Shown here piece by piece: positions 3,717 to 27,026 of a DNA stretch of 32,000 bases (the first letter of the stretch is position 1; the number at the start of each line of letters is the position of its first letter). The stretch comes from Candidatus Electrothrix yaqonensis. Lineage in GTDB: Bacteria; Desulfobacterota; Desulfobulbia; Desulfobulbales; Desulfobulbaceae. The DNA lies in NCBI GenBank assembly GCA_047651235.1, contig CP178758.1, positions 270,001 through 302,000 on the forward strand, written 5' to 3'. The notes beneath the pieces are model-generated. The model searched no databases. It was given only the letters and a program-made list of their open reading frames with translations, and was not told where the DNA came from. A program made the translations under genes and the position numbers.

Positions 3717-3949
3717 GAAGGAGGTCAGCCATTGTTTCCTCTTTCAGTAGCATTATCTTTTATCTCCTGAAAGATACGTATTTGTCATGCACTTAAGAGA
3801 GAGACCAGCCTGTCCTTGCTGTGCTATTTGTTCAGGACGCTTCTTTTCTCCAGTAAGAGTTCGATCGAATACGCCTGCCCCTTTTGCCCTAAATTGCCCT
3901 GAAAGGGCAGCGTTCTTCCCTGCCTACAGAATTCAGCTTGGAGGCAATT

Positions 3950-5149
3950 ATGAAATACTCTCTTTTCTTTATCGTATTCTTCTTTATTCTGCATTGCGGT
4001 GTACCCTCTCTCTTTGCCCATGAGATTCATCTGAAAAACGGCAGGATCATTAAAACAGGGAATGTCTGGCGGGAGGGGGATACTGTACATTATGAACAGT
4101 ACGGCGGAACGATTTCCATTCCGTTCAGTCGGGTAAAAGGTGTTGTTTACGATGAAAAGCAGCAGGAGGAATCCAATACCTCCGATGATCAGGTTGCCGG
4201 AGAACAGGAACGCCCGTTGCCTTCAGATAAAGACCTGGCCGCGAAACTCAAAAAATCCCTTGCTCCAAAAAACTCTGTGGAACAGGCCAGTCTGTGTACG
4301 CTTTCCGTGAAGACAGCTGTCGGGTTCGGATCCGGTTTTTTCATCAGCGATGACGGTTTTATCGTTACCAACAAACATGTGGTCAGGGGCAGTGAGAAGC
4401 AAGCTGAAGAGATTGATCAACAGATTGATCAGACCCGCAGAAGATTTGTCAATCATAAAAAATATCTGGATAATATAGCGCAGAGAAACAGCGAATACCG
4501 GGCTGATGCCAAAAAACAGCGGAGCGTACTGAACAGACTGGAGAAGACAGGCCGGTATGAGAAACAGTATCTTACTGAAAAAAGAAAAGAACTGCGTGAA
4601 TTTGAAAAAGAATTACGCCGGGAGGAGAAAGAGTATAAGAAGGCCAAAAAGAAGTATCTTGCCCAAAAACGGGAGTTTGAAAAAGATGTCGGTAAATTCC
4701 GCAGCGGCCAGCGGGAACTGGCAGGGCAGGGAACCTTTAAGATTATTCTGGCCGATGAAACCGAACTGTATGCCACCCTCTACAGAGTAAGCGACGAACA
4801 TGATTTGGCTCTGCTGAAAATAACCGGTTACCGAACACCTTTTCTGCAGCCGGTCAGGAGAAAAAACCTTTCCCAAGGCCAGAAAGTTTTTGCGGTGGGC
4901 AGCCCTGCGGATCTCAGCTTACAAAATACTGTCACTTCCGGAGTATTGTCCGCCATTCGGAAGAACTTTGTTCAGACCAATGCCCAGATTTATCCCGGCA
5001 ACAGCGGCGGACCGCTGATTGATGAGCAGGGCAGGGTGATCGGGGTCAATACCAAGAAATTGCTGACTAGGAAATTTGAAGGACTGGGCTTTGCCATCCC
5101 CATCAGTATTGTTTTTTCCGAGTTCAGAGATTATCTGCTGGATGACTGA
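3950..5149 (+). CDS. secreted trypsin-like (S1, HtrA/DegP-type fold, no PDZ) serine protease with a long charged insert
   Basis: GGAGG lies 6 nt before the ATG at 3950. The signal peptide is MKYSLFFIVFFFILHCGVPSLFA. The catalytic triad contexts are TNKHVV (His), DLALLKI (Asp) and GNSGGPLID (Ser). Confidence 0.8.
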   Translation: MKYSLFFIVFFFILHCGVPSLFAHEIHLKNGRIIKTGNVWREGDTVHYEQYGGTISIPFSRVKGVVYDEKQQEESNTSDDQVAGEQERPLPSDKDLAAKLKKSLAPKNSVEQASLCTLSVKTAVGFGSGFFISDDGFIVTNKHVVRGSEKQAEEIDQQIDQTRRRFVNHKKYLDNIAQRNSEYRADAKKQRSVLNRLEKTGRYEKQYLTEKRKELREFEKELRREEKEYKKAKKKYLAQKREFEKDVGKFRSGQRELAGQGTFKIILADETELYATLYRVSDEHDLALLKITGYRTPFLQPVRRKNLSQGQKVFAVGSPADLSLQNTVTSGVLSAIRKNFVQTNAQIYPGNSGGPLIDEQGRVIGVNTKKLLTRKFEGLGFAIPISIVFSEFRDYLLDD

Positions 5150-6336: not shown

Positions 6337-7617
6337 TTACATCGGAACGATTAGTTTGTTGCTCTCTTCATTCCACGTCACAATCACATACCACAGGGCC
6401 ATGACCAAAGCAATCATCCCTAAGGTCCAGCCGTAGCCCATCGCATCTGGCAAATAAATGAACTTCCCTAAAATGCCGGCGTCATTTATCCCCTCGTCAA
6501 GCCACCCTTCCCATCCCTCAAAGTCCTCAGCTTTGAACCACATGGTCATCAGTGAGTTGGCAATACCGAAGAAAGGGACCACTATCCAGAGTTTGAGCTG
6601 TCCTTCTCCTACGCGCCACAGGGTGCCGGAACCGCAACCGCCTGCCAGCATTCCCCCCAGGCCGAAGAGAAACCCGCCGAAAACTCCGCCCCAGCCGAAG
6701 GTTCCGCGTACATAAGCGGACGGATCAAGAACAGAATAGCCATCCAGAGTAATCGGTACGGCATATTTGACAACAGCACCGCCTGCGGCAAGGATGAAAA
6801 TCGACAGGGCAACGGATTTTGCCAGGGTGCAGTCGCCGGTCATATGCGGCTCCCGGAACCCCTGAATCATACACCAGCGTCCGCGGTGCATCGCATAGCC
6901 CAGTCCGGCGGCAATCAGCAGAATACCGGAGAGCGAGGCGATATAGTCCACATTGCCGTCACCGTCATAGCCGCTGTACTGAGAAGCTCCCCAGATCAGA
7001 CCGGCAAGAGCGGCAAGCCCGAGCAGGGTCTGCAGCACCCTCGGAACCTCCACGGTCCATGCGCCCTTGGAACCCCAGGTGATATACTCCATTTCCTTGT
7101 ACAGGAGCCACAATCCGAGAATAACCCCCAGAACAATGCCGAACCACATGGTAAAGCCGTTTGCAGCCAGATTGCCGATGGCGTTGTACATACCACCGAC
7201 ATTGCAGCCGCCTGCCAGAGCAGAACCGACTCCCATCAGAATACCGGCCAGAATCGCCTTGACCACTTCCCGGTAGGGAGGAAAACGGAAGGCAAACTGT
7301 CCCCCGAGACAGGCGGAGAGAAACGCTCCGCCCAGAAATCCGATGCCGATTACGGAACCGGAACTGATCAGAGGTGATTTCGGATCGCCGAGGTGTCCGA
7401 AACTGATGCCATACACAATCCAGTCGCCCCAGTTGCGGATCGCTCCCACTGCACCCCAGGGGCGCCACCAGACCATAATCAGAATGCTCAGGAGCGCAAT
7501 AATCACCCCTGTCATATTGGCATTCCATTCGGTTTCACAGAGATCTTTATACAGGGCTCTCGTTTTTCCCAATAAGCTCGATTCGCTTATGAACCCGCTT
7601 TTTTTCGTCTTGCTCAT
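6337..7617 (-). CDS. yeeE: YeeE/YedE-family sulfur (thiosulfate-type) transporter
   Basis: Polytopic Gly-rich membrane protein with repeated GGCxxG-type motifs (LAGGCNVGG, LAGGCGSGTLW). The start was refined to the ATG at 7617 (MSKTKKSGF), which is preceded by AGGAGG. The 94-codon 5' extension in the track has no coding character. Confidence 0.85.
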   Translation of the reverse strand: MSKTKKSGFISESSLLGKTRALYKDLCETEWNANMTGVIIALLSILIMVWWRPWGAVGAIRNWGDWIVYGISFGHLGDPKSPLISSGSVIGIGFLGGAFLSACLGGQFAFRFPPYREVVKAILAGILMGVGSALAGGCNVGGMYNAIGNLAANGFTMWFGIVLGVILGLWLLYKEMEYITWGSKGAWTVEVPRVLQTLLGLAALAGLIWGASQYSGYDGDGNVDYIASLSGILLIAAGLGYAMHRGRWCMIQGFREPHMTGDCTLAKSVALSIFILAAGGAVVKYAVPITLDGYSVLDPSAYVRGTFGWGGVFGGFLFGLGGMLAGGCGSGTLWRVGEGQLKLWIVVPFFGIANSLMTMWFKAEDFEGWEGWLDEGINDAGILGKFIYLPDAMGYGWTLGMIALVMALWYVIVTWNEESNKLIVPM

Positions 7618-7714
7618 TAAACATCCTCCTGCTTTCCTGTAACTTGTTCTGATAAAAAAATATACATAAATTTTCCTTAACCTCCGTCGTCCTGAAACAG
7701 TCTGCAGCCGACAA

Positions 7715-7749
7715 CTGTACAGTTTTTTAGATTCTCTGTACAGTTTTTT
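7715..7749. promoter_or_regulatory. two perfect copies of CTGTACAGTTTTTT spaced 21 bp start to start (candidate operator pair)
   Basis: Copies lie at 7715-7728 and 7736-7749. Each contains the 8-bp perfect palindrome CTGTACAG. They sit in the yeeE/tusA divergent intergenic region. Confidence 0.4.
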
Positions 7750-7899
7750 CATGCCTGTCTTTTCAAAAAATATATTAGGTATTGTTGATGATGAAGCCGC
7801 TGCCGTATAACCATCCAGAACAAATTCCGGAAAGACCGGTTGGGCGGAACTGCAGGGCGTTAGCTGGCAGCTGGAGCTTTCGGTAAGCTCATTAATCAC

Positions 7900-7928
7900 T
7901 TGACAGAGAAGAAACTATTCGTTATAGA
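7900..7928 (+). promoter_or_regulatory. sigma70-like promoter for the tusA operon (TTGACA - 17 nt - TATAGA)
   Basis: Hexamers and spacing read directly from the sequence, about 125 nt upstream of the tusA ATG. Confidence 0.4.
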
Positions 7929-7963
7929 AATAATTTTTAATATGAAAAAGAAACTGCGACAGG

Positions 7964-7981
7964 ATCATCATCACTGATGAT
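7964..7981 (+). promoter_or_regulatory. palindrome/hairpin ATCATCA-tcac-TGATGAT in the tusA leader
   Basis: 7-bp perfect inverted repeat, downstream of the predicted promoter. Confidence 0.3.
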
Positions 7982-8053
7982 TCTGCGCAGACTGACCGAG
8001 TTATGACCAATAATTTTTATTTTATCTTAACCTTACCAAGGTAGGAGGATCAG

Positions 8054-8311
8054 ATGAGTGATGTAAAAACAGCACCTGACGGATTGGACGTGGCAACAGT
8101 ACTTGACGCAAAAGGTTTGAGCTGCCCTATGCCGCTGCTGCGCACCAAAAAAGAAATCGGCAAGATCGGCAGCGGTCAGATTCTGCAGATCGACGGGACT
8201 GATCCCGGTTCCCGCAACGATATCCCCGGATGGTGTGCCCGCGCCGGTCACGAGTACCTCGGCGAAAAAGAGGAGTCAGGCTATATGAGCTTCTACGTCC
8301 AGAAAGGCTGA
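8054..8311 (+). CDS. tusA: TusA/SirA-family sulfur carrier protein
   Basis: LDAKGLSCPMPLLRTKKEI carries the conserved Cys-Pro-x-Pro motif. The protein is about 85 aa, and GGAGG precedes the ATG. Confidence 0.85.
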   Translation: MSDVKTAPDGLDVATVLDAKGLSCPMPLLRTKKEIGKIGSGQILQIDGTDPGSRNDIPGWCARAGHEYLGEKEESGYMSFYVQKG

Positions 8312-8363
8312 TCCTGATTAACCTTGATTTAAAATGCGTCTCAGACAAGGGAGATAAAAGCCG

Positions 8364-8708
8364 ATGGCTGCTGAGCAGAACAACGATCCGAATAAACTGG
8401 CTATTTTTGTCACATCACCTCAGCATATGACCCATGTAGTGGGTATTGCCGAAGCTGCGGCAAGAGCGAAAAAGAAGCCCATGATTTTCTTTACCTACAA
8501 GTCAATTCACCTGACCAAAGATCCGCGCTTCAAGGCTCTGGCTGAACTGTGCGGTGAAGCAGATATCGCTATCTGCGCTGACAGCTACACCTGCGAAGGA
8601 TATGACAGCGAAAAGGATATTCCGGCAGGACTGACCGCAACGCAGATGAGAACTCAGGCATTCCACGGCGCTCTGCTGGACGAATGCGGCAAGTACATTG
8701 TTTTATAA
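8364..8708 (+). CDS. DsrE-like (DsrE/DsrF fold) sulfur relay protein
   Basis: KLAIFVTSPQH...IFFTYKSIHL...ICADSYTCEG has the layout of small DsrE-fold proteins. It lies directly after tusA. Confidence 0.6.
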   Translation: MAAEQNNDPNKLAIFVTSPQHMTHVVGIAEAAARAKKKPMIFFTYKSIHLTKDPRFKALAELCGEADIAICADSYTCEGYDSEKDIPAGLTATQMRTQAFHGALLDECGKYIVL

Positions 8709-8721
8709 GGAGCGAATCCAG

Positions 8722-9069
8722 ATGGAATCATTAAAAGTATATATTCTGATTGCCAATCGTACCTATAACGACGGCATTCGTTCCGCCCTCGGACTTGCTG
8801 TGGAAAATCACTACGGTTACCCGGTGGTCATGAATGGGGAGTTCCCGAAAATGAGCGAGTACATGGCCGAAAATATGGCCTGGATCGCTGACATGGAAGG
8901 CGAGGTGCTCAGCTGCGGTGCTGAGGCGCCGACTGACCTGCCTGAAGGGGTCGAGATGAGCAATATCGATCTGGAGGCACTGGGTGAGAGAATGCGCGAG
9001 GCGGATGTCATTATTCCGTACGGCCTGCCCAAACAGACAAAAGAGCCGCCGCCCGCATGTGCGGAATAG
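8722..9069 (+). CDS. second DsrE/DsrF-fold-like protein (conserved hypothetical)
   Basis: Internal ATG of track ORF 8698..9069, preceded by AAGGAG. MESLKVYILIANRTYNDGIRSALGLA resembles DsrE/F N-termini. Confidence 0.45.
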   Translation: MESLKVYILIANRTYNDGIRSALGLAVENHYGYPVVMNGEFPKMSEYMAENMAWIADMEGEVLSCGAEAPTDLPEGVEMSNIDLEALGERMREADVIIPYGLPKQTKEPPPACAE

Positions 9070-9087
9070 GACAAGGAGGAATGTGCG

Positions 9088-9261
9088 ATGAAAATATTAC
9101 AGGTATATCGTTCCGAACCGAACGATGATGTAAACACACTGGTCGGAATTCTCAACCGTGACCGTGATGCAGATGAGTTCAGACTTTATGAAGAAAATCC
9201 GGATTATGATCTGCTGGTCAGCAAGATTTTTGATGCGGACAAGACAGTCTGCTGGTGGTAA
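9088..9261 (+). CDS. 57-aa ORF, possible minimal DsrH/TusB-like protein (below the ORF-track length cutoff)
   Basis: AAGGAGGA lies 7 nt upstream of the ATG. The translation is MKILQVYRSEPNDDVNTLVGILNRDRDADEFRLYEENPDYDLLVSKIFDADKTVCWW. It is the last gene before the operon terminator. Confidence 0.4.
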   Translation: MKILQVYRSEPNDDVNTLVGILNRDRDADEFRLYEENPDYDLLVSKIFDADKTVCWW

Positions 9262-9289: not shown

Positions 9290-9350
9290 CATAAGGGTGT
9301 AAAATGTGTATGCAAGCACGCGAAGCTACAGCCTTATACAGTACGGTACG

Positions 9351-9387
9351 GCCCGTGGTCATTTTGATCACGGGCTTTCTTTGTTTT
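9351..9387 (+). terminator. rho-independent terminator of the tusA-dsrE-like operon
   Basis: GCCCGTGGTC-atttt-GATCACGGGC (10-bp stem including one G.U pair) is followed by tttctttgtttt. Confidence 0.6.
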
Positions 9388-9758: not shown

Positions 9759-12140
9759 ATGGCCGCAGAAAAAGAACAGCTTGCAAAGGATTTCGAAGAA
9801 GTGCAAGGTCTACTTGCGCAGTACCCGGATATCAATGTGCTGCAGACCGAGGGCGAGCCGCCAGGCAACTATGATATTGAATATCATGTCAAAGGATTTG
9901 TTCGGGATGCCGATGGAAATGTCCGTCAGGCATCACAGCACTTGCTACGCATTAACCTCCCCTTCGGGTATCCTCATTTCCCTCCTATCGTTAAACCGCT
10001 GACCCCGCTTTTTCATCCGGATATTGATCCGGATGCCGTCCGTATCACCTCGTACTGGCAGCAAAACCCGTCACTTGCCCGACTCATTCTCCATCTCGGA
10101 GAAATGATCTGCGGCAAAGAATATAATACTGAAGAACCATTTAACCAGCGGGCAGCTGACTGGTATATTGAACATGCTGCGGATCTTCCTCTGGATGAAA
10201 TACGGAAAAGGGAGGCAGGAGCAGCTGATGAAGAGGTTGGTCTCTCTCTGGAAATGGACAGCGATGGACACAGCAACGGACTCGATTCCCTAGCAATGGA
10301 GATTGATACGCCGCAGGAAGACGCGCCGACACCGGCGCAGTTGGACGAAGTCCGGGCACATATTGACAGAAACGAGGTGGTGACTGCCGGTAAATTACTG
10401 GCCGACCTGCCAGCGTCATCCCCGGAAGTGCAGAATCTGCAGGAGATTGTGAGCTCGGCGCTTAATGAACGGGACAGGCTGATCAGGGAACTGGAAGAAC
10501 TGGAAGACGAAGACCGGTTTACAGATGCCTATGAATTATTTGAAAAAGTACAGGAGATTGCGCCGGATACACCGGCCCTGTCAGATATAGGGCATCGCCT
10601 GCGGCAGTCTCAGGCCATGCTGGAGACATTTTCTTTGTCTTCCGGCTCTGAAGAAGACTCTGCGGAGCAACCGGCAGACCAGGAACAATCTGCACCGGCT
10701 TCCAAAAAGAAAACAAAAAAACAGCAACAAAAGTCAGTCAACCAGGGAGAGGAGAAAAAATACAGGACAAAACCTCCTGTCCGGACAAGAATCAGGCAGA
10801 AGGCCCAGATAAAAGTGCCGGTCAAACCGGTATTGGTGGCGCTTGCATTGCTGGCATTGATCTGCGGCGCTGTTTTCCTGCACACAAAAGACATGAATAC
10901 CCTCATGAAAGCACAGCGTGACTGGATAGAGGTTAAATATCAGCGCTGTCAGACGAAGGAGCAGTTTAGGGAGAAGAGAATAAAAGCGGAAAAAATTCTG
11001 GTCGGTCTCAAATCCATTATCACGCCCGGTATCGGAAAAAAAGAGCTGCAGCAGGAGATTCTTGACCAGCTTAATTCCCCTGAGTTTAAAGCCGGAGAGA
11101 GCGGCCAAGCTGAAGCGGCCGAACTGCAGAAAAAGGTTGAGTCGCTAATAGAGGAGGCAAAGGCTCTTGCTGAGAAGGACCAGTTTGCAGAGGCTGCCTC
11201 CACGTGTAATGAGGCGCTTTCCCTGGCTGAAGAAAGGAAGCTGGAACAGTATGTTGTAAAAATAAAACAGCTCTTGGAACAGATACAGGAGCTGCGAAAT
11301 CAGGAGAGTGCACAAAGAGAGCAGGAACAGGTCGGGAAAAGCGGCAGAGAGGCCGCTGAGTTTTTCCGGCAGCTGGACAAGGAAGACAGTGCTGCTGATG
11401 CGTCAAACAAGCGGGTCGCTGCAGCCCGGTGGCAGGAGGCCGCTGACCAGCTACAACGCGCTTTGGAGCTGCTGGATGCCCATCCTGAGATCAGCCTGCC
11501 TGACAGACGGCGTGAACTGCAGCATATGCTGGCTTATTCTATTCTGTATCAGCAGCTTGCCCATGCCCGGCAGGTTTATTACACAGGGGATTTCAAAGAA
11601 GCAATCAATGATTACCGGAAAGCGCTGGTGCTGCTTGATGAGCAGCAGGCGGGTTTCTCCTCGATCTATAATAATGCGGTTGCCAGTATTCGTCAGGCGA
11701 TTATCATGCTGGAAATCAGCATTGAACTCAGATCTGCTATTGAAGCAGAGAGCCGGGATGATCTGAAGAAGTCCCTGGCAAAGTATAAGGGGATTTTGAA
11801 AATTATTTCTTCCTCCAGAGTTGCGAAAGATGATAATCTGATCGGAATCAAAAAATATATCCGCAAAAAAATTAAAGAGCAGAGCCTGAAGGAAGCCAAG
11901 AACAGCACCCAGGAATGGCTGAAGAAAAACTACGAGGCCATTTTTAGAAGGGCCTACCCTTCAACAAAATCTTCCGAGTTGAGCCGTCCGCAGATTACCT
12001 TTATCAGAGTGATGAACGGACATCTTCTCTATACGATAAGCTGCGCAGAGCGGAAACGGGGCAGCGTCTATCAGCTTGAGCTGAATTATCAGTATAATCC
12101 GGCGACAGGCGGATGGAGCCGCTATCAGGGCGAGTTATGA
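9759..12140 (+). CDS. membrane-anchored protein with an N-terminal UBC/E2-like (Cys-less, UEV-type) domain, a single TM helix and a long helical/TPR-like C-terminal region
   Basis: LLRINLPFGYPHFPPIVKPLTPLFHPDIDPDAVRITSYWQQNPSLARLILHLGEMI...PFNQRAADWY follows the UBC core pattern. The TM helix is VKPVLVALALLALICGAVFL, preceded by a K/R-rich stretch. Confidence 0.65.
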   Translation: MAAEKEQLAKDFEEVQGLLAQYPDINVLQTEGEPPGNYDIEYHVKGFVRDADGNVRQASQHLLRINLPFGYPHFPPIVKPLTPLFHPDIDPDAVRITSYWQQNPSLARLILHLGEMICGKEYNTEEPFNQRAADWYIEHAADLPLDEIRKREAGAADEEVGLSLEMDSDGHSNGLDSLAMEIDTPQEDAPTPAQLDEVRAHIDRNEVVTAGKLLADLPASSPEVQNLQEIVSSALNERDRLIRELEELEDEDRFTDAYELFEKVQEIAPDTPALSDIGHRLRQSQAMLETFSLSSGSEEDSAEQPADQEQSAPASKKKTKKQQQKSVNQGEEKKYRTKPPVRTRIRQKAQIKVPVKPVLVALALLALICGAVFLHTKDMNTLMKAQRDWIEVKYQRCQTKEQFREKRIKAEKILVGLKSIITPGIGKKELQQEILDQLNSPEFKAGESGQAEAAELQKKVESLIEEAKALAEKDQFAEAASTCNEALSLAEERKLEQYVVKIKQLLEQIQELRNQESAQREQEQVGKSGREAAEFFRQLDKEDSAADASNKRVAAARWQEAADQLQRALELLDAHPEISLPDRRRELQHMLAYSILYQQLAHARQVYYTGDFKEAINDYRKALVLLDEQQAGFSSIYNNAVASIRQAIIMLEISIELRSAIEAESRDDLKKSLAKYKGILKIISSSRVAKDDNLIGIKKYIRKKIKEQSLKEAKNSTQEWLKKNYEAIFRRAYPSTKSSELSRPQITFIRVMNGHLLYTISCAERKRGSVYQLELNYQYNPATGGWSRYQGEL

Positions 12141-12159: not shown

Positions 12160-12420
12160 TTATGAGTGATGGTGACCGGCATGATGATGTCCATGATCTT
12201 GATGCTTGTGATCGGCAAGAGGACCGCCTGCCTTCTGCAGAGCTTCTTCGAGGCTGTTCTGTGCCTCCTGCAGGGAATGCACGGCCTTGTGCAGCAGGGC
12301 TGCGGTCTCCGGGGCATCGCTGGCCAGTTTTTCCGCCCATTGGGAAAATTCCCGGGCGTGTCCCTGGTTATGTTCTATCCAGTGGGGCAGCATAACACGT
12401 AATTTATCAATATCATTCAT
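12160..12420 (-). CDS. histidine-rich putative metal-binding protein
   Basis: The C-terminus is DHKHQDHGHHHAGHHHS, and the N-terminal part contains HWIEHNQGHAREF. It lies 31 nt downstream of cooT on the same strand. Confidence 0.65.
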   Translation of the reverse strand: MNDIDKLRVMLPHWIEHNQGHAREFSQWAEKLASDAPETAALLHKAVHSLQEAQNSLEEALQKAGGPLADHKHQDHGHHHAGHHHS

Positions 12421-15009: not shown

Positions 15010-15140
15010 AATCTAATAACTGTGGGAAATGATAATCCCGGTCAGGCAGTTGAAAAAGGTGATTTTTCCTGCCCCGTTCGGGACCGATCAGGGCGGCGAT
15101 TTCCCCCTGCCGAACCCGGATATCCAGTTTATACTGCTCC
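15010..15140 (-). pseudogene. fragment of a LivG/LivF-type ABC transporter ATPase (Walker A region only, frameshifted)
   Basis: The minus strand reads ...LDIRVRQGEIAALIG, then after a 1-nt shift PNGAGKITFFNCLTGII. It is truncated on both sides and abuts the IS982 remnant. Coordinates are approximate. Confidence 0.45.
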
Positions 15141-15689
15141 AGCTATATCAGCCTCATTCGCGGCTGTAATTCCGATGTAATCAGGCAGAGGAAGCCGGCC
15201 GTTTCTTCTGACGGCGAGAATGTGGAGCTTGAGGCCGTAATAATACGTTTTCTTTGTTGAATTATATCCTTTGGCGGCGATTTCACGGGCGACTTTCGCG
15301 TTGCCGCTGCGTTGAGCCTTCGCGATCATAATCGGCATGGAGTCGATCAGCCGAATCAATTCCGATCCGTTCGGCAACGTAAAATCATTCTGTATCCGGG
15401 GAAGCAGATGAGAAAAAACGGAACTCAGGCGGTTCAGCCGCTGAATATATGTCGCATATGCCGGTATATCCGGAAACCATTCGATCAAGTGGTTCCGGGC
15501 ATATTTATGAGCGTCTTTTACTTTTCTGTATCCGTTCATAATCCCCCATAAATAAACAGTTATCAGCTCGGGATCACTGAACTTCGGACTGCTGTTACTG
15601 CTCATTATTTCGGAATATATAAAGAGTTCGGAGTCGTAATGCTTGGTTACATACAAAAACAGTGCTATAAGTATTTCCTGCCAATCCAT
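15129..15689 (-). pseudogene. IS982-family transposase, C-terminally truncated
   Basis: DSMPIMIAKAQRSGNAKVAREIAAKGYNSTKKTYYYGLKLHILAV...ITAANEADI matches the IS982 N-terminal and central region. The ORF stops about 100 aa short of full length, at the junction with the ABC fragment. Confidence 0.65.
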
Positions 15690-18240: not shown

Positions 18241-20046
18241 ATGAAACCTGTAAGAAACAAAGTACTGGTGCTTCTTCTGGTGTCACTGCTGCTGGTTGCC
18301 TGTGACAAAAAAGATAAGGAGGAAGTGAAATCGCAACCGAAGCCGGAGCCGCCGAAACAGGAGGTGAAGCTGGATGTCTCCATGCTTGAGCTGGTGCCGG
18401 AGGATACCATCTTCTTCTCCGGCGGACTGGAACCGTTTCCGCTGAAAGAGACCCTGCAGTGGAGCGCGGCGCAGTTCAGCATGCTGAAGGAGCTTGATCC
18501 GAAGACCATGCTGCCGCCGGTTCAGGAAACAGCTCCTGAAGGACAGCGGATGGCGGCGCAGCTCTGGGCTGAATACTATGCCCTCCTTGTTTCTCCGGAA
18601 ACAGAGCTGACCGCCTGGGGCATCAAGGAAAAACCTGTTATGGCCTCGTATTCCATCGGCCTATCCCCTGTGCTGCTGCGCATCAGCCTGCAGGATGCGG
18701 AAAAATTCAATGCAAAACTTGATGGACTGGAGGCAGATGCCAAAATTACCGGCAAGTCGGAAACTTTGGGTGAGGCAACCTTTCGGCGTTATGTGCTGCA
18801 GGAGAAAGATCCGCACCTGACGCTGATCATAGGTGTGGACGGTGAACGCAACCATGCTGTTGTCCTGCTGGATTTAGGGGTTGACAGCGACCAGACCCTT
18901 GCGCTGGCCCTGGGACAGAAAAAGCCGGAAAAATCTTTGGCGCAGAGCGGACGGGTTGAGGCCCTGCAGAAGAAATATCAGCTTCTGCCTTCCTGGATCA
19001 GTTATATCGATCACCAGCAGCTGATCACCGGACTGACCACAAAAGAGGGCAACAGTCTTGCAAAGATGGTCCAGGTTCTTGCTCCGCAGCTGCAGGGTGC
19101 GACAGAATCTCTGGCAGCCCTGCAGGAGGAGGGCTGCCGTAATGACCTCACAGCCATCGGCGAGAACTGGCCGCAGACGGTGATCGGGTATACCGCACTG
19201 GACCTGAAGGCCAAGCCGTCTCATATTGATTCCCTGATGGTGGTGGAAAGCAAGGATAAAAAACTGCTGGACGGACTGGGTTCGCTTCGCGGCGTTGTGC
19301 CTGACTACGTCCGCAACTCGCCTGAACCGCCTGTGTTCTCATTCGGCCTTGGCCTGAATCTGGACAACCTCATGCCGTTCCTCACGCAGCGCTGGACTGA
19401 AATCACCCAGAAACAGTACAGTTGCTCCTTTCTGCAGGAAATGCAGGCGCAGGTCAAGACGCAGCAGCCGGCTGTTATTGGTGCGGCTACAGGTATGGCT
19501 CCCGGTGTGCAGGGAATTGCCTTTTCCCTGCTGTCGCTGACCATGAGCAGCCCGGAGAACAGCGGGATGCCCATGCCTGAAAAGGCTGACGCCGTGATCA
19601 GCCTGGCCGCCAAAGATCCGGCAACACTGGTGCAGATGGCCAGCACAATGGTTCCGCCGCTGGCAGAACTGCAGCTGCCTGCTGATGGCACGCCGGTGCA
19701 GCTTCCTCTGCCGTTGCCGCTGCAATTTCCGGTCATGGCAGCTATACATGGCCAGCACCTGACTGTATATGCCGGAGAAAAGGCAGCAGGTATTGCCCAG
19801 GGACTGGACAAGGTCAGTTTGGACGCCTCCCGTGGATTTATGGCCGCAGATATTGACTATGGCAAATATTACGGGTTGATCGGAGATGTTATGACCGATT
19901 TTGGTGTTACGGCAGACAGCCCGGAAAATGCCCAGGCTACGGCCATTCTTGAAGGGATGAAGAAAGCTGCAATGCGGCTCTGGATGGATATGGATTTTAC
20001 GGAGCGCGGCATTGAAATGCATGCGAATGTGATTTCAACAAAGTAA
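18241..20046 (+). CDS. large hypothetical lipoprotein
   Basis: MKPVRNKVLVLLLVSLLLVAC has a lipobox. 600 aa with no catalytic motif recognised. Confidence 0.7.
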   Translation: MKPVRNKVLVLLLVSLLLVACDKKDKEEVKSQPKPEPPKQEVKLDVSMLELVPEDTIFFSGGLEPFPLKETLQWSAAQFSMLKELDPKTMLPPVQETAPEGQRMAAQLWAEYYALLVSPETELTAWGIKEKPVMASYSIGLSPVLLRISLQDAEKFNAKLDGLEADAKITGKSETLGEATFRRYVLQEKDPHLTLIIGVDGERNHAVVLLDLGVDSDQTLALALGQKKPEKSLAQSGRVEALQKKYQLLPSWISYIDHQQLITGLTTKEGNSLAKMVQVLAPQLQGATESLAALQEEGCRNDLTAIGENWPQTVIGYTALDLKAKPSHIDSLMVVESKDKKLLDGLGSLRGVVPDYVRNSPEPPVFSFGLGLNLDNLMPFLTQRWTEITQKQYSCSFLQEMQAQVKTQQPAVIGAATGMAPGVQGIAFSLLSLTMSSPENSGMPMPEKADAVISLAAKDPATLVQMASTMVPPLAELQLPADGTPVQLPLPLPLQFPVMAAIHGQHLTVYAGEKAAGIAQGLDKVSLDASRGFMAADIDYGKYYGLIGDVMTDFGVTADSPENAQATAILEGMKKAAMRLWMDMDFTERGIEMHANVISTK

Positions 20047-20154
20047 GAAGCCTGCTGATCTTTGTTGTATTCTTCTGCCGCCCGGTCCTTCGGAGCCGGG
20101 CGCGCCCTGTGGAGAATGCGTCCTGATGAATGTACTGAAGGAAGTTGTGCTCAG

Positions 20155-20856
20155 ATGAGAATCCGGAAAAAAGATTTTGTAGCCGGGGCTGAGGAAGCTG
20201 AAGGTATTGCGGTCATCATTGACGTGTTCCGGGCTTTTTCTGTAGCCTGTTACTGCCTGCACGGCGGGGCGGAGCGGGTGCTTCCTGTCGGGGCAGTTGA
20301 AGAAGCTCTGACCCTGAAAGAGCAGGTTGCCTGTCCCGTGCTGATCGGCGAACGGGGCGGCAGAAGACTGGACGGCTTTGATTTCGGCAACTCACCCTCT
20401 GAGCTGCAGTCCGCTGAGCTGCAGGGGAAAAATATCATTCATACCACCCATGCCGGTACCCAGGGCGTTGTCCATGCCCGCAGGGCTTCCGAGGTGCTGA
20501 CCGGGGCCTTTGTCAATGCCCGCGCTACAGCCCGGTATATCAGAAGCAGATCGCCTGAGACAGTCACGCTGGTCAGAATGGGCTGGAAGGCAGAGACCCC
20601 ATCGGATGAGGATAATCTGTGTGCCGATTATCTGGAAAGTCTGCTGCTGGAACTCCCGTTTGATGAGCAGGCTGTCAGACCGGCTTTGAAGGCGTCCCCC
20701 TGTGCAGAGCGCTTTTTTGATCCGCAGCAGCCGTGGAATCCCGCAGAGGATTTTGACCTGTGTCTGCGGATCAATACCTTTGATTTTGCCGTGATCGCCG
20801 GGACAGATGAAGACGGTCTGCTGGCGTTGCGCAGAAGCTGTCTTCTCAGGAGATAG
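20155..20856 (+). CDS. comB: 2-phosphosulfolactate phosphatase (ComB family)
   Basis: VIIDVFRAFS and FGNSPSE are the ComB signature motifs. The start is uncertain: ATG at 20155 or 20116, both within track ORF 20062..20856. Confidence 0.7.
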   Translation: MRIRKKDFVAGAEEAEGIAVIIDVFRAFSVACYCLHGGAERVLPVGAVEEALTLKEQVACPVLIGERGGRRLDGFDFGNSPSELQSAELQGKNIIHTTHAGTQGVVHARRASEVLTGAFVNARATARYIRSRSPETVTLVRMGWKAETPSDEDNLCADYLESLLLELPFDEQAVRPALKASPCAERFFDPQQPWNPAEDFDLCLRINTFDFAVIAGTDEDGLLALRRSCLLRR

Positions 20857-20877
20857 CCGAATCCTGCTCCCCGGCTG

Positions 20878-21279
20878 TCAGCCGACCCGGACCTGCAGCT
20901 TTTCAGCCAGCTTATAGCCGATAATCGCGCCCCGTCCTTTTGTGCCGAAACTGAATTCCCCCTGCTGCAGATAGCCTCCAAGACGACCGTGCCGCTCTTC
21001 CGCCTCCAGATCGACACCGAGCAACACCGCGCTGCGTGAATAATGGGCAGTCGCGACCAGCCCGTCCTGCCTGAGCCGCTGCACAAAGCTCTTTACCCGC
21101 GTCGGCAAGCAGTGCTTCCAGCTCCCTGTCCTTGCCGATCATCTGTTCGGTCATGCCGTCATCCCTTCCATAAAGAGCAGGCCCCAGAGGCTGACCGCGA
21201 TCATCAGCACCAGCAGGACTGAACGGGTGCGCCGGCGGATCAGTGAGGCCCAGGCTATTTTGGTTGTTGTTGTGAACAT
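20878..21279 (-). pseudogene. remnant of an FtsX/MacB/LolCE-type ABC transporter permease (N-terminal ~130 codons spread over three frames)
   Basis: The ATG at 21279 gives MFTTTTKIAWASLIRRRTRSVLLVLMIAVSLWGLLF (typical TM1), followed by a stop. The sequence then continues in other frames as TEQMIGKD... and ...LLGVDLEAEERHGRLGGYLQQGEFSFGTKGRGAIIGYKLAEKLQVRVG, a periplasmic-domain pattern. Confidence 0.55.
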
Positions 21280-21313
21280 GGTGTATATCCTCTGTATATC
21301 TTTTTGCGGAAGG

Positions 21314-22291
21314 TTAGTGATTCTGTCCCTGCTGAATATGTTGCAGGATTTTTTTGCTCAGAATCTCCCAGAGTTCTTTGTTGAAAAACACATGTCCTCC
21401 GCCTTTGATGATGAAAACTTCCGCATTGTCGAGGGAGTGGGCAAGGAGCTTTGTGTTTTCCGGGTTGGCCGGAAGATAGTCTTTTTCCCCGTGAATATAG
21501 AGCAGGGACTTGTTGAGACGGCTCAGTTCTTCCCAGATATCCCGGATACCAGCCTGTACATTGGTATGATTCCAGGCCGGGCCGATTGTTTCTGTGGCAT
21601 AGATAGCCTCGGTATATCGGTAGGCCATGTCCTTATCAAACTCCCAGTCCCCGTTCAGATAACGCCATACCTTGAGGAATTCCGGCGCACCTCTCTCAAA
21701 ATCCTGGTACATGGGGTTTGCCATAAATATCCCCCAGATTTTTTCCGTAATCTCAGGAGGTGTTGCAACATAGGGCAGATTGCCTTTGGCCAAGATAGGA
21801 CTGCTCACTGCTGTCACTGATCTGGTTTGCTTTGGATACGACAGAGCAAAGAGCTGGGCAATGGAACCGCCCAGAGAATGGCCGATGATATGCGCCGGTT
21901 GCTCTGAGTGTGCAGCAAGAACGGCAGCAGCATCGTCCACCATATCATTGATCGAATAGGGAAGCTCAATGCCGCTGTCAGGTGCGTTCTGGGGGAAATG
22001 GGTTGAGCGGCCCATGTCCCGGTTGTCAAAGCGGATAACGAAATATCCATTGGCAACCAGTCTTGCGCAGAAGCTGTCTTCCCAGAAGAGAGCTGGAGCC
22101 ATAGCTCCGGCTATCAACAGGACCGGAACATCGTCTTTGTTGCCAAAGCTTTCAGCGTAGAGTTTGACTGATCCGTTGTGTATCATTCGAGACATAAAAT
22201 GAGGTTTCATGTTGTTAGCTGTTCCAATGTTGATGATAGCAAAGACAAAGATTATACTGAGCGAAATATAAAGGAGTTTTGTGTCATTCAT
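21314..22291 (-). CDS. secreted alpha/beta-fold hydrolase
   Basis: N-terminal signal/anchor, GHSLGG nucleophile elbow, and a C-terminal GGGH. Confidence 0.8.
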   Translation of the reverse strand: MNDTKLLYISLSIIFVFAIINIGTANNMKPHFMSRMIHNGSVKLYAESFGNKDDVPVLLIAGAMAPALFWEDSFCARLVANGYFVIRFDNRDMGRSTHFPQNAPDSGIELPYSINDMVDDAAAVLAAHSEQPAHIIGHSLGGSIAQLFALSYPKQTRSVTAVSSPILAKGNLPYVATPPEITEKIWGIFMANPMYQDFERGAPEFLKVWRYLNGDWEFDKDMAYRYTEAIYATETIGPAWNHTNVQAGIRDIWEELSRLNKSLLYIHGEKDYLPANPENTKLLAHSLDNAEVFIIKGGGHVFFNKELWEILSKKILQHIQQGQNH

Positions 22292-22444
22292 CTCAAAATT
22301 ATCTGCGCCTAAGAGAAGAACTCATGTTGACTGTCCAGGCTTGTAAAAAAATCACATGGTTCAGGTTTCATGCCTCTGTTCTCCATAGCAACTTTGACAA
22401 TCAATTTATTATACGGGTGAATATCCTCAGCGTTTATATATTCA

Positions 22445-23038
22445 TCAATGCTTTATCCATCGCGCTTCAAGTATCTCCTGGCTGTCGGTAATATGAATCG
22501 TTGTGGATAACGGTACGGCCTTGCAAATAAAATAAATATTTGACGCATTAAACTGGCATGGTGAAAAATGTCCGATGGAGACAATAGACTCCGGCTGCAC
22601 ATCTATTCCGGTTTCTTCAGATACCTCTCTTGTGACCGCCTGTGAGATATTTTCTGCGTTGTCTACATAACCACCCGGAAGCTTATATTTTCTGTATACC
22701 CTGTCCTTAACAACCAACATGCTGTCTCCGTCCCGGACAAAGGCACCAACTCCTATTGTGTGGTTTGTCGGGGTGGGAATGACAGGATTCTGTGTTAATT
22801 TCCTGAGCAGAATGATTGTCTTTTCATTACAGTCATAAAATGTAAATTCGTGCTTTGTTAATACAGGGATATAGCGTGATTTGCTGATGGGTAGAGTAAT
22901 CCATAGTAATTTTTTGTCGGCCTGATCGGAGATGAGCTTTACGAGACCTTTCTCAAACTCGTCAAGAGCTTGAACAACGGTGGTATCATCAATGATGATG
23001 CCGCCATATTTGTCTTCTTTGTATGTAATCCGTATCAT
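22445..23038 (-). CDS. Nudix hydrolase with an N-terminal accessory domain
   Basis: The Nudix box is GGYVDNAENISQAVTREVSEETGI. Confidence 0.8.
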   Translation of the reverse strand: MIRITYKEDKYGGIIIDDTTVVQALDEFEKGLVKLISDQADKKLLWITLPISKSRYIPVLTKHEFTFYDCNEKTIILLRKLTQNPVIPTPTNHTIGVGAFVRDGDSMLVVKDRVYRKYKLPGGYVDNAENISQAVTREVSEETGIDVQPESIVSIGHFSPCQFNASNIYFICKAVPLSTTIHITDSQEILEARWIKH

Positions 23039-23039
23039 T

Positions 23040-23360
23040 TTACTGTAATATCAAAACAATAAATCCAATTACAATTAAAGCAAAATTCAGTTGAAACAAA
23101 TGGAACCATTTTAGCGATTTGTTTTTTCTTTTACAAATATCGTGGTATTTCAAAACAGTAGAGAAAACATAAAACGGCGAAACCCAAAACTTGTAATAGC
23201 TGAATTCTCTTTCGGCTTCCAAAACAGGCCTCATCTTGAAGTAATAAATCAATATGTTCCCAACCACAGGGAGCATTATCAAATTTTCAAAATTCATTCT
23301 GATGCCACCATATTTGTCTTCCCTGTATGCAATCGCTGTGTGATCAATAAAAGGGTTCAT
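23040..23360 (-). CDS. small hypothetical membrane protein; its first ~21 codons duplicate the 5' end of the Nudix gene
   Basis: AT-rich ORF with hydrophobic segments. The real start may be the internal MNFENL. See the related finding. Confidence 0.35.
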   Translation of the reverse strand: MNPFIDHTAIAYREDKYGGIRMNFENLIMLPVVGNILIYYFKMRPVLEAEREFSYYKFWVSPFYVFSTVLKYHDICKRKNKSLKWFHLFQLNFALIVIGFIVLILQ

Positions 23361-24196
23361 GCTTTCCTGGCAATCACTGCAAATTCGCTGGATTTCTGAT
23401 CATAAGGGCTGCCTGCAACGTCGGAATACAGCCCTTTGATGGAGAAGCCAGCCGCAACAAACTCGTTTTCAAGGTCTTCAGGGGTAAAATGCTGAAACCA
23501 GTTGTAGACTTGTCTGGTGCGTTCAGGCTCAATGATTGTGTACTTATCCAGGATGACCTTCTCTTCATCGTATTTGAAGGTATTCACAAAGCCGTAATAC
23601 TTGTTCGGCGACCAGAATCCGTTGAGTTGATTCAGCTCATATGTCGCGCTCTCTTCCCGTTGTTCGAAGGCTGAGAGGGAGTTTACATCAAGAAGGACCG
23701 AGCCTCCCGGTTGCAGCATGTTATGGAATTTGCTCAGGAGCATCTTGCGTTGCGTCGGGCTGAGGGCGCAGAAATCACACATAATCATCACAATAAGGTC
23801 GAACTGTTCTTCCGCCTCAAATTCCAGGTAGTTATGGTTCAAATAGTTGATATTCAACTGCTCACGGGCTGCAACTTCTTTTGCGTAGTCGATGGATCTC
23901 TTAGAAAAATCAATGCCAGTCACTTGTGCGCCGTGTTGTGCCAAAGCTGTTGCATAGAGTCCCGGACCACAGCCGAAATCAGCTATCCTGTTGTTATTGC
24001 CGATGTTGAACTCAGCCGCGATCCATTCCACTGATCGCTTGATAAACTCCGAGTTTCGCGAAGAAAGATCGACATCCTCATTAAGATGGTATGAAAGCAT
24101 CTGCTTTGACGTATGCTCATCAGTCCACAGGTCGCTTGCCGTGTAATACTGGAACGGTTCAGGTTTTTGGTTGATCTTCTCTAATTCTTCAAACAT
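23357..24196 (-). CDS. class I SAM-dependent methyltransferase
   Basis: Motif I is IADFGCGPGLY, followed by an acidic loop ...GIDFS.... Confidence 0.8.
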   Translation of the reverse strand: MFEELEKINQKPEPFQYYTASDLWTDEHTSKQMLSYHLNEDVDLSSRNSEFIKRSVEWIAAEFNIGNNNRIADFGCGPGLYATALAQHGAQVTGIDFSKRSIDYAKEVAAREQLNINYLNHNYLEFEAEEQFDLIVMIMCDFCALSPTQRKMLLSKFHNMLQPGGSVLLDVNSLSAFEQREESATYELNQLNGFWSPNKYYGFVNTFKYDEEKVILDKYTIIEPERTRQVYNWFQHFTPEDLENEFVAAGFSIKGLYSDVAGSPYDQKSSEFAVIARKA

Positions 24197-24549
24197 GGTA
24201 TTTCCTCGTTATTTAGCAGAACATCAACTCTGCAATGATTGTTAAATGCTAGCTCTATAGCCAGTTGGGGGCCGGTTGCTTTGAATCCTTCATGAAAAAT
24301 GACGTTGCCCTGAGGTATGTCACTGTCAAAGGAAAGAGCAAAGAACACTTCCTGCGGAACGCCCTCAAGAGCGAGATCGTCAACATTCTTAAACCCGAAT
24401 TGTCGGTAGTATTCCGGGTGCCCGACCAGACAGCAGCCTTTCGCCTGAAGTGCTCGCAAGCGTGATAACCCTTCTTCTATAAGTGCCTTGCCGATCCCCT
24501 GGCGTTGAACGTCCGGGAGCACGGAAACCGGGCCGAGTCCGTACCAGTC
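24181..24549 (-). pseudogene. GNAT (YhbS-like) N-acetyltransferase, C-terminal part, severed by an IS insertion
   Basis: (DWY)GLGPVSVLPDVQRQGIGKALIEEG carries the acetyl-CoA-binding Q/RxxGxG/A motif. The track ORF start (24579) lies inside the IS end. Confidence 0.8.
24541..24549. repeat. 9-bp target-site duplication GTACCAGTC (left copy; right copy at 26051-26059)
   Basis: Identical 9-mers directly flank the inverted repeats. Both encode D-W-Y of the interrupted GNAT reading frame. Confidence 0.8.
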
Positions 24550-26050
24550 GGGTGCGATTAAAAGTGCGGTTTCTGACACCTTACGCTGCCCAGCTTATAT
24601 TCTCCCAATATTTATCCCAGTATCCGTCCGCACGGTCAACTCTCAGGGAAAGCATGATTCGGGCATTTTCCGGTGTCCACCATGCGCCGGCTATTTTCAG
24701 ACGTTCCTGGATGACATACCGGTGCGCACTTTCTATTTCTCCAGAACCGATAGGTAAACCAAGCTGTTGAGCATCGGGATAGTCGAACTGCCCCGGACGG
24801 TTGCTCAGGTAACGCAGGCAGCAGCGGACAGGTGCATTTTGATCTTCTGTCTTTTCCGGCTCAAGATGAGGCTTCAATGCTTCGATCAGTTTTTTTTCCT
24901 GTCCCTTTTTCAGCCGCTCTTTCTGCTGCTTACCCCATGATCCTTTTCCGTCTTTCCCGGAACATGCCGGTGCAGCAGCCTCCAGGTATTCACAAACATG
25001 ATAAAAATCGACAAGGTAATGTCCCTGTGAACCGAACTGTTTTTTCACCTGCCCGGAAATCCACGTTGCTCCGTCACCCACTGAATGCAGAGATGTACCC
25101 CGACCGAATCCCGCACGGCAGGCGCAATCAAAGAGAACCTTTCCCGACTCGTCAACGTTTTCCTGAAATGCAACTCCGAATTTAAGCGTCCTTTCACCGA
25201 GAACATGAGCTATACTCAGGCGTGCTTCTTTCCAGCTGTGCTTTTTACCTTTGCGCCGGTCCCTGGCATCTGTATCCGTCAGGACAATCGGAACCATGCT
25301 GCCGTCCGTCTCGGCAATAACGAAGTCCCGTCCCTTTATAGACGGATATTCTTCAATTCTCTCCTATCGACGTCTTTCATGTATGTGTCGGGCGTGAGTC
25401 TCCGTGATATTTCGGACAGTACTTACCGGTAATGTTATCCCATAATGTTCCTTCAGTTTTTCAGGAACCCGACCAAAGGAATGGTCTGCCCCGAAATCTG
25501 TTACGGCACGCTGCAGAGGCAGCGAGCAGCATCGGCAGGTTATTCCGGCACTTCGGCTGAACGGCCGGTACCGTTTTCCCGGCTGTCTGTACTCCTGCTC
25601 AACTACGTGAATTATCCCGAACGTCGTGTGCCAATGTGTTTTTTTTACCGCTACGGGTACAATTACCGTCCGTCGGAAGAGCTGCCCCGGATTTTTCAAT
25701 TCGACTCTCCGCCCATCCGCTGAGCACCTCATTACCCATCCGGCGAACTTCCTCAATGACCCTACTTTCGGCCTCATCAGCTTTTACAATCCCGTCTCCG
25801 TCATCACCGGCTATAGAAAGAATAGCTTGAATACGCGTTTTCAGATTTGGCTGACGGTTCAATTGATTGAGCAATTCCTTATCTTCCTGTGACAGTGAGG
25901 ACATAAATATCTTCTCCGGGATAATATTATACGAACGGACAACACAGCATCCTGATTACTTGCTGTTTCTTTCTCAAAGAAATCAAAGTAACAGAAAAAT
26001 ACGCTCTCATGCATCCCGTAATTGATAAAACCGCACTTGTAATCGCACCC
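24550..26050 (-). mobile_element. ISKra4-like insertion sequence, 1501 bp, with 23-bp terminal inverted repeats
   Basis: IRL at 24550-24572 is GGGTGCGATTAAAAGTGCGGTTT. The reverse complement of IRR at 26028-26050 is GGGTGCGATTACAAGTGCGGTTT (22/23 identical). A 9-bp TSD is present, and the interior encodes a DDE transposase. Confidence 0.8.
24581..25904 (-). pseudogene. ISKra4-family DDE transposase, interrupted by one frameshift and one in-frame TAG
   Basis: Three track ORFs cover it: 25599..25904, 25364..25777 and 24581..25297. The last two share a frame and are separated by the TAG at 25364-25366. Motifs are IAETDG, VGDGATW and GSGEIES. Confidence 0.7.
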
Positions 26051-26293
26051 GTACCAGTCTGTGCTGCCGTCCGACATGGTGACAGGAGAGAAGGCAATAT
26101 GGCCTACAACACGGTCGTCTATTTCCGCAACCAATGAGATTGTCAGGGCATTGGCAGTTCGTAATGCCTCAATGATGAATTGTTCAGTGTGGTTGCTGAT
26201 CTCCAGCGTCTCGAACGCTGCTTGCGTCACATCTGAGATGACGCTGTGGTCTGTGTCTTTTTCGTCTCTGATCAAGATGTTTTGTGGTTTCAT
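26051..26293 (-). pseudogene. GNAT N-acetyltransferase, N-terminal part (other half at 24181-24549)
   Basis: MKPQNILIRDEKDTDHSVISDVTQAAFE...VVGHIAFSPVTMSDGSTDWY runs straight into the IS right end. Confidence 0.8.
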
Positions 26294-26323
26294 GAAAAAT
26301 GTCTTCGTTTTTATATTGTGTTG

Positions 26324-26899: not shown

Positions 26900-26916
26900 G
26901 TTTTTCTCCTGATTTT

Positions 26917-26988: not shown

Positions 26989-27026
26989 TACCAGTAAAGC
27001 CAGTCCTCTGAAAATAATAACTTCGT

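Follow-up and report, generated by a model that had tools for sequence, protein, structure and literature searches.

Results

A membrane-anchored protein with an E2-like domain

We analysed a gene within a 32,000-nucleotide stretch of the genome of Candidatus Electrothrix yaqonensis (assembly GCA_047651235.1, contig CP178758.1, positions 270,001 to 302,000 of the forward strand), which we call the window and whose first letter is position 1 of all coordinates given here. The gene (9759..12140, + strand, stop codon included) encodes a predicted bitopic membrane protein of 793 amino acids (aa), an open reading frame (ORF) and length that agreed exactly with a preliminary description made from the letters and a list of ORFs. 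Sequence comparison and structure modelling both point to an N-terminal domain with the fold of ubiquitin-conjugating enzymes (UBC/E2), in which an invariant arginine stands at the position of the catalytic cysteine. We therefore refer to the domain as a pseudo-E2.

The UBC/E2-fold domain covers aa 1-150 (9759..10208), is placed in the cytoplasm by prediction, and runs from a long helix alpha1 through a beta-meander, an HPD loop and alpha2 to alpha3. Within it lie the HPD motif found in place of HPN (aa 86-88, 10014..10022), read from the translation and the homologue alignment, and the codon of the arginine at the catalytic-Cys position, R95 (10041..10043). The domain is followed by an acidic, weakly conserved linker (aa 151-200, 10209..10358; 14 D+E, 2 K+R) that forms a length-variable gap region in the alignment, by a conserved helical, TPR-like segment predicted to be cytoplasmic as well (aa ~201-295, 10359..10643), and by a low-complexity stretch (aa 296-354, 10644..10820; 15 K+R) ending in a K/R-rich segment directly before the single transmembrane (TM) helix (aa 355-376, 10821..10886). 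The remainder comprises a predicted periplasmic helical/TPR-like region (aa 377-715, 10887..11903) and a conserved C-terminal alpha+beta domain (aa 716-793, 11904..12137), all on the + strand.

E2 fold of the N-terminal domain

The window protein matched the Pfam family UQ_con (PF00179) at aa 59-139, corresponding to profile positions 45-128 of 140, with a score of 27.2 bits (E=3.4e-6) against a gathering cut-off of 27, so that the threshold was passed, marginally for a single sequence. A profile built from 27 homologues over their first 160 aa (alignment A2) matched 257 distinct PDB E2 sequences at E<=1, with UBE2C as the best (3.7e-9). The AlphaFold2 (AF2) model of aa 1-160 had a pLDDT of 89.2 and a pTM of 0.84 and showed its secondary-structure elements in E2 order, and a Foldseek search with this model returned 348 PDB chains at E<=1e-3, the top matches all being canonical E2s (Ubc13, UbcH7, Rad6b, UbcH5, UBE2C; probability 1.00, TM-score about 0.6). 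The terminal helix alpha4 of canonical E2s is seemingly missing from the domain, judging from the AF2 secondary structure, and the active-site loop of the window family is four residues shorter than that of eukaryotic E2s. The profile matches and the model together show the predicted cytoplasmic N-terminal domain to be a genuine UBC/E2 fold. The preliminary description, which had recognized a UBC/E2-like domain at the N-terminus and anticipated such folds from a structure search, was thus borne out on both points.

That description had also called the domain UEV-type, a label that we retained as a functional analogy and abandoned as a statement of kinship. No Pfam match to UEV (PF05743) or RWD families was obtained for the window protein even at E<=10, the best sequence and structure matches were active E2s, and by these comparisons the window protein is no closer to Mms2 or TSG101 than to other E2s. 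A search of NCBIfam with the window protein gave no meaningful match. Eukaryotic UEV proteins (Mms2/Uev1, TSG101/Vps23) and RWD domains share with it a UBC fold lacking the catalytic Cys, which in them serves as a non-covalent binding module, but they have no specific sequence kinship to it and lost the Cys independently, and the UEVs are soluble or part of ESCRT-I rather than bitopic.

Replacement of the catalytic cysteine by arginine

We found 97 full-length close homologues (E down to 2.4e-251) from Ca. Electrothrix, Ca. Electronema, 'Desulfobulbus sp.' and Desulfobulbaceae metagenome-assembled genomes (MAGs), which together with the window protein make up a close set of 98 sequences. The best of them was only 52% identical to the window protein, which sets the window apart as a lineage of its own close to the marine cable bacteria. 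R95 was invariant in the close set (98/98), and no Cys was present between aa 89 and 100 in any of the 98 sequences, so that the Cys, whose absence across the family had been put forward as a point to check, is missing from all of these Desulfobulbaceae proteins. The change from HPN to HPD, already noticed in the window protein, was seen in 97 of the 98; the catalytic/structural Asn of the HPN triad is thus unmatched.

The register of the active site was fixed by gapless pairwise alignments, in which the catalytic Cys of UBE2C (NICLDIL) corresponded to the Cys of Myxococcus stipitatus MYSTI_05411 and to R95 of the window protein. R95 also aligned without gaps to the Cys of a Desulfopila-type orthologue (P0176). 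The aligned segments read FHPDIDPDAVRITSYW in the window protein, FHPDFDQAAICIGEYW in P0176 and FHPNIAPHAICIGDHW in MYSTI_05411. It had been correctly noted before that the thiol is missing at the catalytic position, but the Cys had been set against I96, a register that is off by one. As judged from these alignments, the window protein was shown to be a pseudo-E2 with Cys replaced by Arg95, a domain that could not carry a thioester in consequence of the replacement. Other residues of the domain were also well conserved. Conservation in the window clade is high at K79, S105 and C118, with S105 present in 92 of 98 sequences, while C118, located in helix alpha2, is the sole common Cys of the close set and is Ser in 11 of the 98.

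Distribution of the Cys and Arg forms

An exhaustive profile search recovered 1,574 representative relatives at E<=1e-3. Among the relatives listed, the column of R95 held Arg in 129 and Cys in 88, the rest being S, K, A, Q, H and others. The full architecture, with a TM helix near aa 350 and the C-terminal domain, was present in 112 of 114 long R-type members and in 60 of 63 long HPD-Cys-type members. P0176, a Cys-type orthologue, aligned collinearly with the window protein from end to end (27% identity, E 5e-67). When species-representative genomes were scanned with the Cys-type alignment, 227 loci were confirmed, and the 80 of these that were kept are from Desulfocapsaceae (Desulfopila, Desulfofustis glycolicus DSM 9705, Desulfocapsa, Desulforhopalus, Desulfosediminicola and Desulfoprunum). 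These comparisons show, at the level of sequence, a protein inherited vertically and present order-wide in Desulfobulbales, an order whose members cycle sulfur, with the Cys kept in Desulfocapsaceae and Arg in its place in Desulfobulbaceae.

The orthologues in Desulfocapsaceae, the sister family, share with the window protein the TM position, the C-terminal domain, the HPD motif and a partial synteny that includes a convergent DUF8180 gene. They differ in carrying C95, invariant in the 30 Desulfocapsaceae-type sequences aligned (alignment A3) within the active-site sequence FHPDFDPAAICLGDFW, together with C78, positions at which the window clade carries R95 and, in most members, V78. C78 (in PPSCKP) is the second invariant Cys of the Cys clade in alignment A3. 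A metal or disulfide site formed by C78 and C95 was considered and rejected, since C78 falls in the alignment on the core Val that canonical E2s have there, and many variants without C95 retain it; from its alignment C78 is more likely a buried residue.

Variants with S, H, Y, A, F or N at position 95 nested among Cys neighbours and kept the full architecture. Parsimony on a neighbour-joining (NJ) tree of 150-160 columns, which we used for the qualitative claim of multiple losses, gave a rough estimate of about 20 state changes at this position with Cys as the inferred root state. By this analysis the Cys is lost many times inside the membrane-anchored family, and the Cys-to-Arg form is a lineage-specific derivative of a Cys-bearing bacterial E2 family.

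Constraint on the E2-like head

The head was the most conserved part of the protein, with a mean column identity of 67% in the E2-like domain (A2) against 36% for the whole protein. When compared at matched divergence of the C-terminal domain, the E2-like domain was the better conserved in the R-clade, with values of 0.52-0.72 against 0.45-0.59 in the Cys-clade, and constraint was therefore not relaxed after the loss of the Cys. The alignments show a head under what appears to be sustained purifying selection. We considered that the head is a decaying and functionless relic on a protein whose essential function resides in the anchor and the periplasmic TPR/C-terminal module. The repeated loss of the catalytic residue and the lack of an identified partner would agree with this, but the head is the best conserved part and at matched divergence more so in the Cys-less than in the Cys clade, and a decaying site would drift where R95 is kept in 98 of 98; we regard a relic as very improbable.

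Thioester chemistry is certainly not the core function of the window's clade, as far as its sequences can tell, and for the membrane-anchored family as a whole the same comparisons suggest that it is not. Both statements follow from the repeated Cys loss, the occurrence of HPD in both membrane clades (the Cys-bearing Desulfocapsaceae clade included), the invariant R95 and the undiminished constraint on the head.

Membrane helix, topology and periplasmic part

The TM helix, VKPVLVALALLALICGAVFLHT, reached a Kyte-Doolittle peak of 2.53 in a 19-residue window. Among 191 long TM-bearing family members, only 2 had a second hydrophobic window (>=1.7), and there was no N-terminal signal-like segment. 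The 20 aa flanks of the helix contained on average 5.5 K+R on the N-side and 2.5 on the C-side, with the N-side exceeding the C-side in 162 of the 191. This excess supports an N-in/C-out topology, and the calculation agrees with the earlier proposal of a single TM helix with a cytoplasmic UBC domain and periplasmic repeats. The order of acidic linker, K/R-rich stretch and TM helix had likewise been recognized, while the conserved helical segment at aa ~201-295 had been missed. Its near-invariant residues are A210, L214, L241, E249, A257, D270, P272, L274 and R280, and its counterpart in P0176 has a TPR_14 match at aa 266-296.

On the far side of the membrane, aa 607-625 matched TPR_2 (E 1.4e-6, 28.4 bits against a cut-off of 27) as well as TPR_1. 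This was the single repeat above the Pfam threshold in the window protein; orthologues, P0176 among them, had stronger and more numerous TPR matches. Conserved residues of the region between aa 377 and 715 include W558, L572, P576, A603 and Y619. The AF2 model of the last ~103 aa (pLDDT 86.7) consists of a long helix on a four-stranded antiparallel sheet. These results fit the prior reading of about 420 aa of helical/TPR-like sequence and a small C-terminal module after the TM helix. The C-terminal domain gave no Foldseek match in the PDB at E<=1e-3, with only a weak NTF2/SnoaL/VirB8-like resemblance, and its profile retrieved no different architecture, just a pair of short proteins of 102 and 114 aa, so that it was not found outside the family.

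A comparable placement of an E2 fold is known from the tail-anchored E2s of the endoplasmic reticulum, Ubc6 and UBE2J1/2. These enzymes are active through their Cys, are anchored by the C-terminal tail and lack a large domain in the lumen. They share with the window protein an E2 fold held at the cytoplasmic membrane face by a single TM helix, but the TM helix of the window protein is central and about 420 aa lie on its far side.

Relationship to operon E2s of other phyla

The nearest relatives outside the membrane-anchored family were soluble, short HPN-Cys E2s (>3,000 proteins) from Myxococcota, Planctomycetota, Aminicenantes and others. MYSTI_05411 shared 40% identity with the window protein across 145 aa (E 2e-36), and the alignment of the active-site region contained no gaps. 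The A2 profile matched P0223 at 5.2e-38. We examined three outgroup loci (L086, L087 and L088). In two of the three the E2 gene closed an operon that also encoded a YukD-like ubiquitin-like protein (Ubl), a ThiF activating enzyme (E1), a JAB peptidase, Prok-RING_1 proteins and an FHA protein, and one of these full operons (L086) also contained a trypsin/DUF4190 protein; the third locus had the FHA, Prok-RING and trypsin part. Prokaryotic Ub-E1-E2-RING-JAB neighbourhoods of this type were reportedly described by Burroughs, Iyer and Aravind in Mol Biosyst in 2011.

The operon E2s share with the window protein the shortened HPx...x(C/R)IxxxW loop, the PxGYPxxPP motif and UQ_con matches. They are, in contrast, soluble proteins of 150-370 aa with HPN and Cys, encoded beside Ubl, E1, JAB, FHA, RING and trypsin/DUF4190 genes, while the window protein combines HPD and Arg with a TM helix, the predicted periplasmic TPR-like region and the C-terminal domain, and has no such partners nearby. 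Since its nearest soluble relatives belong to Ubl-E1-JAB-RING operons, the lack of partners in the window is a derived state, and the Desulfobulbales protein is best explained, from these sequence relationships, by an operon E2 that acquired a membrane/periplasmic module through fusion and parted from its former partners.

Two further observations concerned the outgroup systems. The E2 gene of the operons overlaps the stop of a gene for a DUF4190/Trypsin_2 protease (L086 5946-7510; L087 5634-7819), and one protein, P0233, is a DUF4190-Trypsin_2-E2 fusion, which suggests that protease and E2 form a functional pair there. The window contains a Trypsin_2 protease gene as well (3938-5149), and we considered it as a remnant of the operon trypsin/DUF4190 gene. 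This candidate was rejected, since the similarity is limited to generic S1 motifs and the gene lies beyond an opposite-strand gene.

Gene neighbourhood

No member of the ThiF, ThiS/YukD, JAB or RING families was encoded in any ORF of the 32 kb window, and no E1, Ubl, JAB or RING gene occurred within +/-5 genes or 10 kb in 85 related loci. The absence of ubiquitin-system partners had been reported before for the 10 kb around the gene; the wider comparison added no recurrent Ubl or E1 among the related loci, although the nearest soluble relatives do have such partners. PADLOC models gave no match at E<=0.01. Together with the apparently monocistronic gene and its housekeeping synteny, this is in keeping with the previous judgement that the locus does not fit operons of the CBASS Cap2 or Bil type.

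A strong intrinsic-terminator-like hairpin (9350..9376, + strand; a 12-bp stem with 7 GC pairs, then a T-run) lies upstream of the E2-like gene. Downstream, a convergent gene for a small His-rich, DUF8180-like protein of 86 aa (12160..12420, - strand), taken from the ORF list and with homologues that carry PF26551, ends 20 bp from the stop of the E2-like gene. With the upstream hairpin and the convergent ORF, the E2-like gene looks monocistronic. The predicted hairpin closes an upstream cluster that contains TusA and would isolate the E2-like gene transcriptionally. GC content around the gene was unremarkable.

The flanks across 86 loci were housekeeping genes. Upstream were AIRC, SecDF, a CxxCxxCC protein and a HAD hydrolase, followed by a divergent gene for a cNMP-binding/PatA_N protein; downstream, on the opposite strand, were DUF8180, CooT, a SIS-CBS protein and an alcohol-dehydrogenase-like protein, then MetK and AhcY. 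In the window the upstream synteny is broken and transposase fragments are present. Truncated transposase-like ORFs (DDE_Tnp_1_3, UPF0236) at 15129-15689 (-) and 24581-25297 (-) are consistent with a rearrangement of the synteny. The DUF8180 gene was adjacent and convergent in 44 of 83 loci, all R-type loci included, and is kept in the window; a functional link between it and the E2-like gene is possible as far as gene order goes. The small protein and its DUF8180/PF26551 homologues (L003 12655-12912, L005 13168-13413) carry the motif LPHW(I/V)EHNQGHA and a C-terminal HxH run, and in other genomes the nickel-binding CooT comes after the DUF8180 gene. The divergent cNMP-binding and PatA_N (DUF4388) gene was found directly upstream in about 63 Desulfocapsaceae loci (within L006-L085) and in one Desulfobulbaceae MAG (L005 9046-9726, -), and is absent from the window.

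Discussion

Proposed function of the pseudo-E2 head

We think it probable that the E2-like domain is the non-catalytic cytoplasmic binding head of a bitopic inner-membrane scaffold or sensor that derives from an operon E2. An operon E2 would have been fused to the TM helix, the periplasmic TPR-like region and the alpha+beta C-terminal module, the fused protein would then have separated from E1, Ubl, JAB and RING, and conversion to the non-catalytic form would have come last, in the Desulfobulbaceae line. In the present-day protein the head may act as a non-covalent protein-binding module, by analogy with UEV/RWD domains, tethered at the cytoplasmic membrane face through the flexible acidic linker and the helical segment. 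The periplasmic TPR and C-terminal domains would bind an envelope component, and the protein would thereby couple or scaffold across the inner membrane. More speculatively, the invariant Arg in the former active-site groove, beside the retained HPD loop, may be the point of contact for an acidic or carboxylate group of a partner.

Several points weigh against this reading. The Pfam score of the window protein itself barely exceeds the threshold, the topology is a calculation from hydropathy and the positive-inside rule, and the NJ tree is rough, with R-type sequences that do not form a clean clade. No binding partner was identified for the head or for the periplasmic part, and the neighbourhood gives no hint of one for either, and the conserved neighbours (DUF8180, CooT, cNMP/PatA_N) are encoded on the other strand and may owe their presence to inherited synteny alone. 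The negative results for partners cover the window and the related loci, and an E1, Ubl or active E2 encoded elsewhere in Desulfobulbales would permit a cofactor role.

Such a role is what the next reading proposes. Some other part of the genome would encode an active E2, or an E1 and Ubl, as the partner of the pseudo-E2, in the manner of Mms2/Uev1-Ubc13. The pseudo-E2 would direct Ubl transfer to substrates at the membrane, and the Cys-bearing Desulfocapsaceae orthologue would be an active membrane-anchored E2. This reading is attractive in that Ubl, E1, JAB and RING partners accompany the protein's closest soluble relatives, the operon E2s, that the Cys is invariant in the 30 aligned Desulfocapsaceae-type sequences, and that the E2-like surface is strongly constrained even after the Cys was lost. 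We nevertheless hold it to be possible but doubtful. Neither the window nor the 85 related loci have an E1, Ubl, JAB or RING gene within 10 kb; proteins within the Cys clade have repeatedly lost the Cys and kept the architecture; and HPD replaces HPN in both membrane clades, where mutagenesis of E2s has found that changing the HPN Asn impairs isopeptide formation.

A broader and rather unlikely proposal would join the two forms in a scattered housekeeping Ubl pathway at the Desulfobulbales inner membrane. The Cys form of Desulfocapsaceae would be a membrane E2 charged in trans by an E1/Ubl from another locus, and the Arg form of Desulfobulbaceae and cable bacteria a UEV-like receptor that reads Ubl or another cytoplasmic signal, no longer writing it, and is coupled to the periplasmic TPR/alpha+beta part as a sensor. 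Eukaryotic pseudo-E2s (UEV, RWD) are central adaptors, and the Arg form, if this were true, would represent an E2 fold turned into a bacterial transmembrane adaptor, which is not known to have a described counterpart.

Catalysis of a non-canonical kind, with the domain as an acyl carrier that uses another nucleophile, has a precedent in BubB. Bacterial E2-like proteins lacking the Cys were once predicted to be inactive, and BubB of the Bub (6E/DUF6527) operons is the counterexample, with an invariant Ser at the equivalent position, oxyester intermediates, and E1, Ubl and peptidase encoded in the operon (PMC11601596). BubB and the window protein are both bacterial E2-fold proteins without the catalytic Cys, and the high conservation of K79, S105 and C118 in the window clade could supply candidate nucleophiles. 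The window protein, however, has Arg and no operon where BubB has Ser and an operon. Arg at the equivalent position is incapable of an acyl intermediate, C118 lies in helix alpha2 and varies to Ser, S105 is not fully conserved, and there is no nearby E1 or Ubl to provide an activated substrate. We therefore consider such catalysis highly unlikely. A mobile anti-phage or conflict component of the CBASS Cap2/Bil/Bub type, suggested by the many bacterial E2-like proteins that belong to such systems (PMC11601596), is effectively refuted by the lack of a PADLOC match and of an E1 or JAB partner, the unremarkable GC content, and a stable housekeeping synteny across two families with 227 confirmed loci in species-representative genomes.

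Implications for the family

The NCBI/JGI labels 'ubiquitin-conjugating enzyme E2' and 'ubiquitin-protein ligase' are wrong for the Desulfobulbaceae Arg forms. The presence of a UQ_con domain is already known from such labels. We found no literature on the family, its architecture, the Cys/Arg split or the operon ancestry in a search that the 2008 J Struct Biol and 2011 Mol Biosyst papers of the Aravind laboratory lay outside of, and a search for bacterial E2, UBC fold and transmembrane returned general papers only. The transition from E2 to pseudo-E2 can be traced within one bacterial order, from an operon-type E2 through a Cys-bearing membrane-fused intermediate to the Arg end state, and the Cys form occurs in Desulfocapsaceae that are in culture and open to experiment (Desulfofustis glycolicus, Desulfopila aestuarii, Desulfosediminicola). 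In cable bacteria (Ca. Electrothrix, Ca. Electronema), whose envelope biology attracts wide interest, the protein is apparently widespread and offers a conserved envelope-spanning candidate for study.

Other genes of the window

The cluster that ends at the terminator-like hairpin (6337-9261) is a sulfur-trafficking cluster with a Sulf_transp (YeeE/YedE-like) membrane protein (- strand) and TusA (8054-8308), followed by three small ORFs without a Pfam match (8364-8705, 8698-9069 and 9088-9261). Two longer ORFs, 18241-20046 (+, 601 aa) and 27027-28157 (-, 376 aa), had no Pfam match at E<=1. The region 20062-31682, which is unrelated to the E2-like gene, contains a run of small-molecule and methyl-transfer genes, including a 2-phosphosulfolactate phosphatase, an alpha/beta hydrolase, a NUDIX protein, a nitroreductase, a GNAT protein and several SAM methyltransferases, LCM-type and ICMT/PEMT-type enzymes among them.

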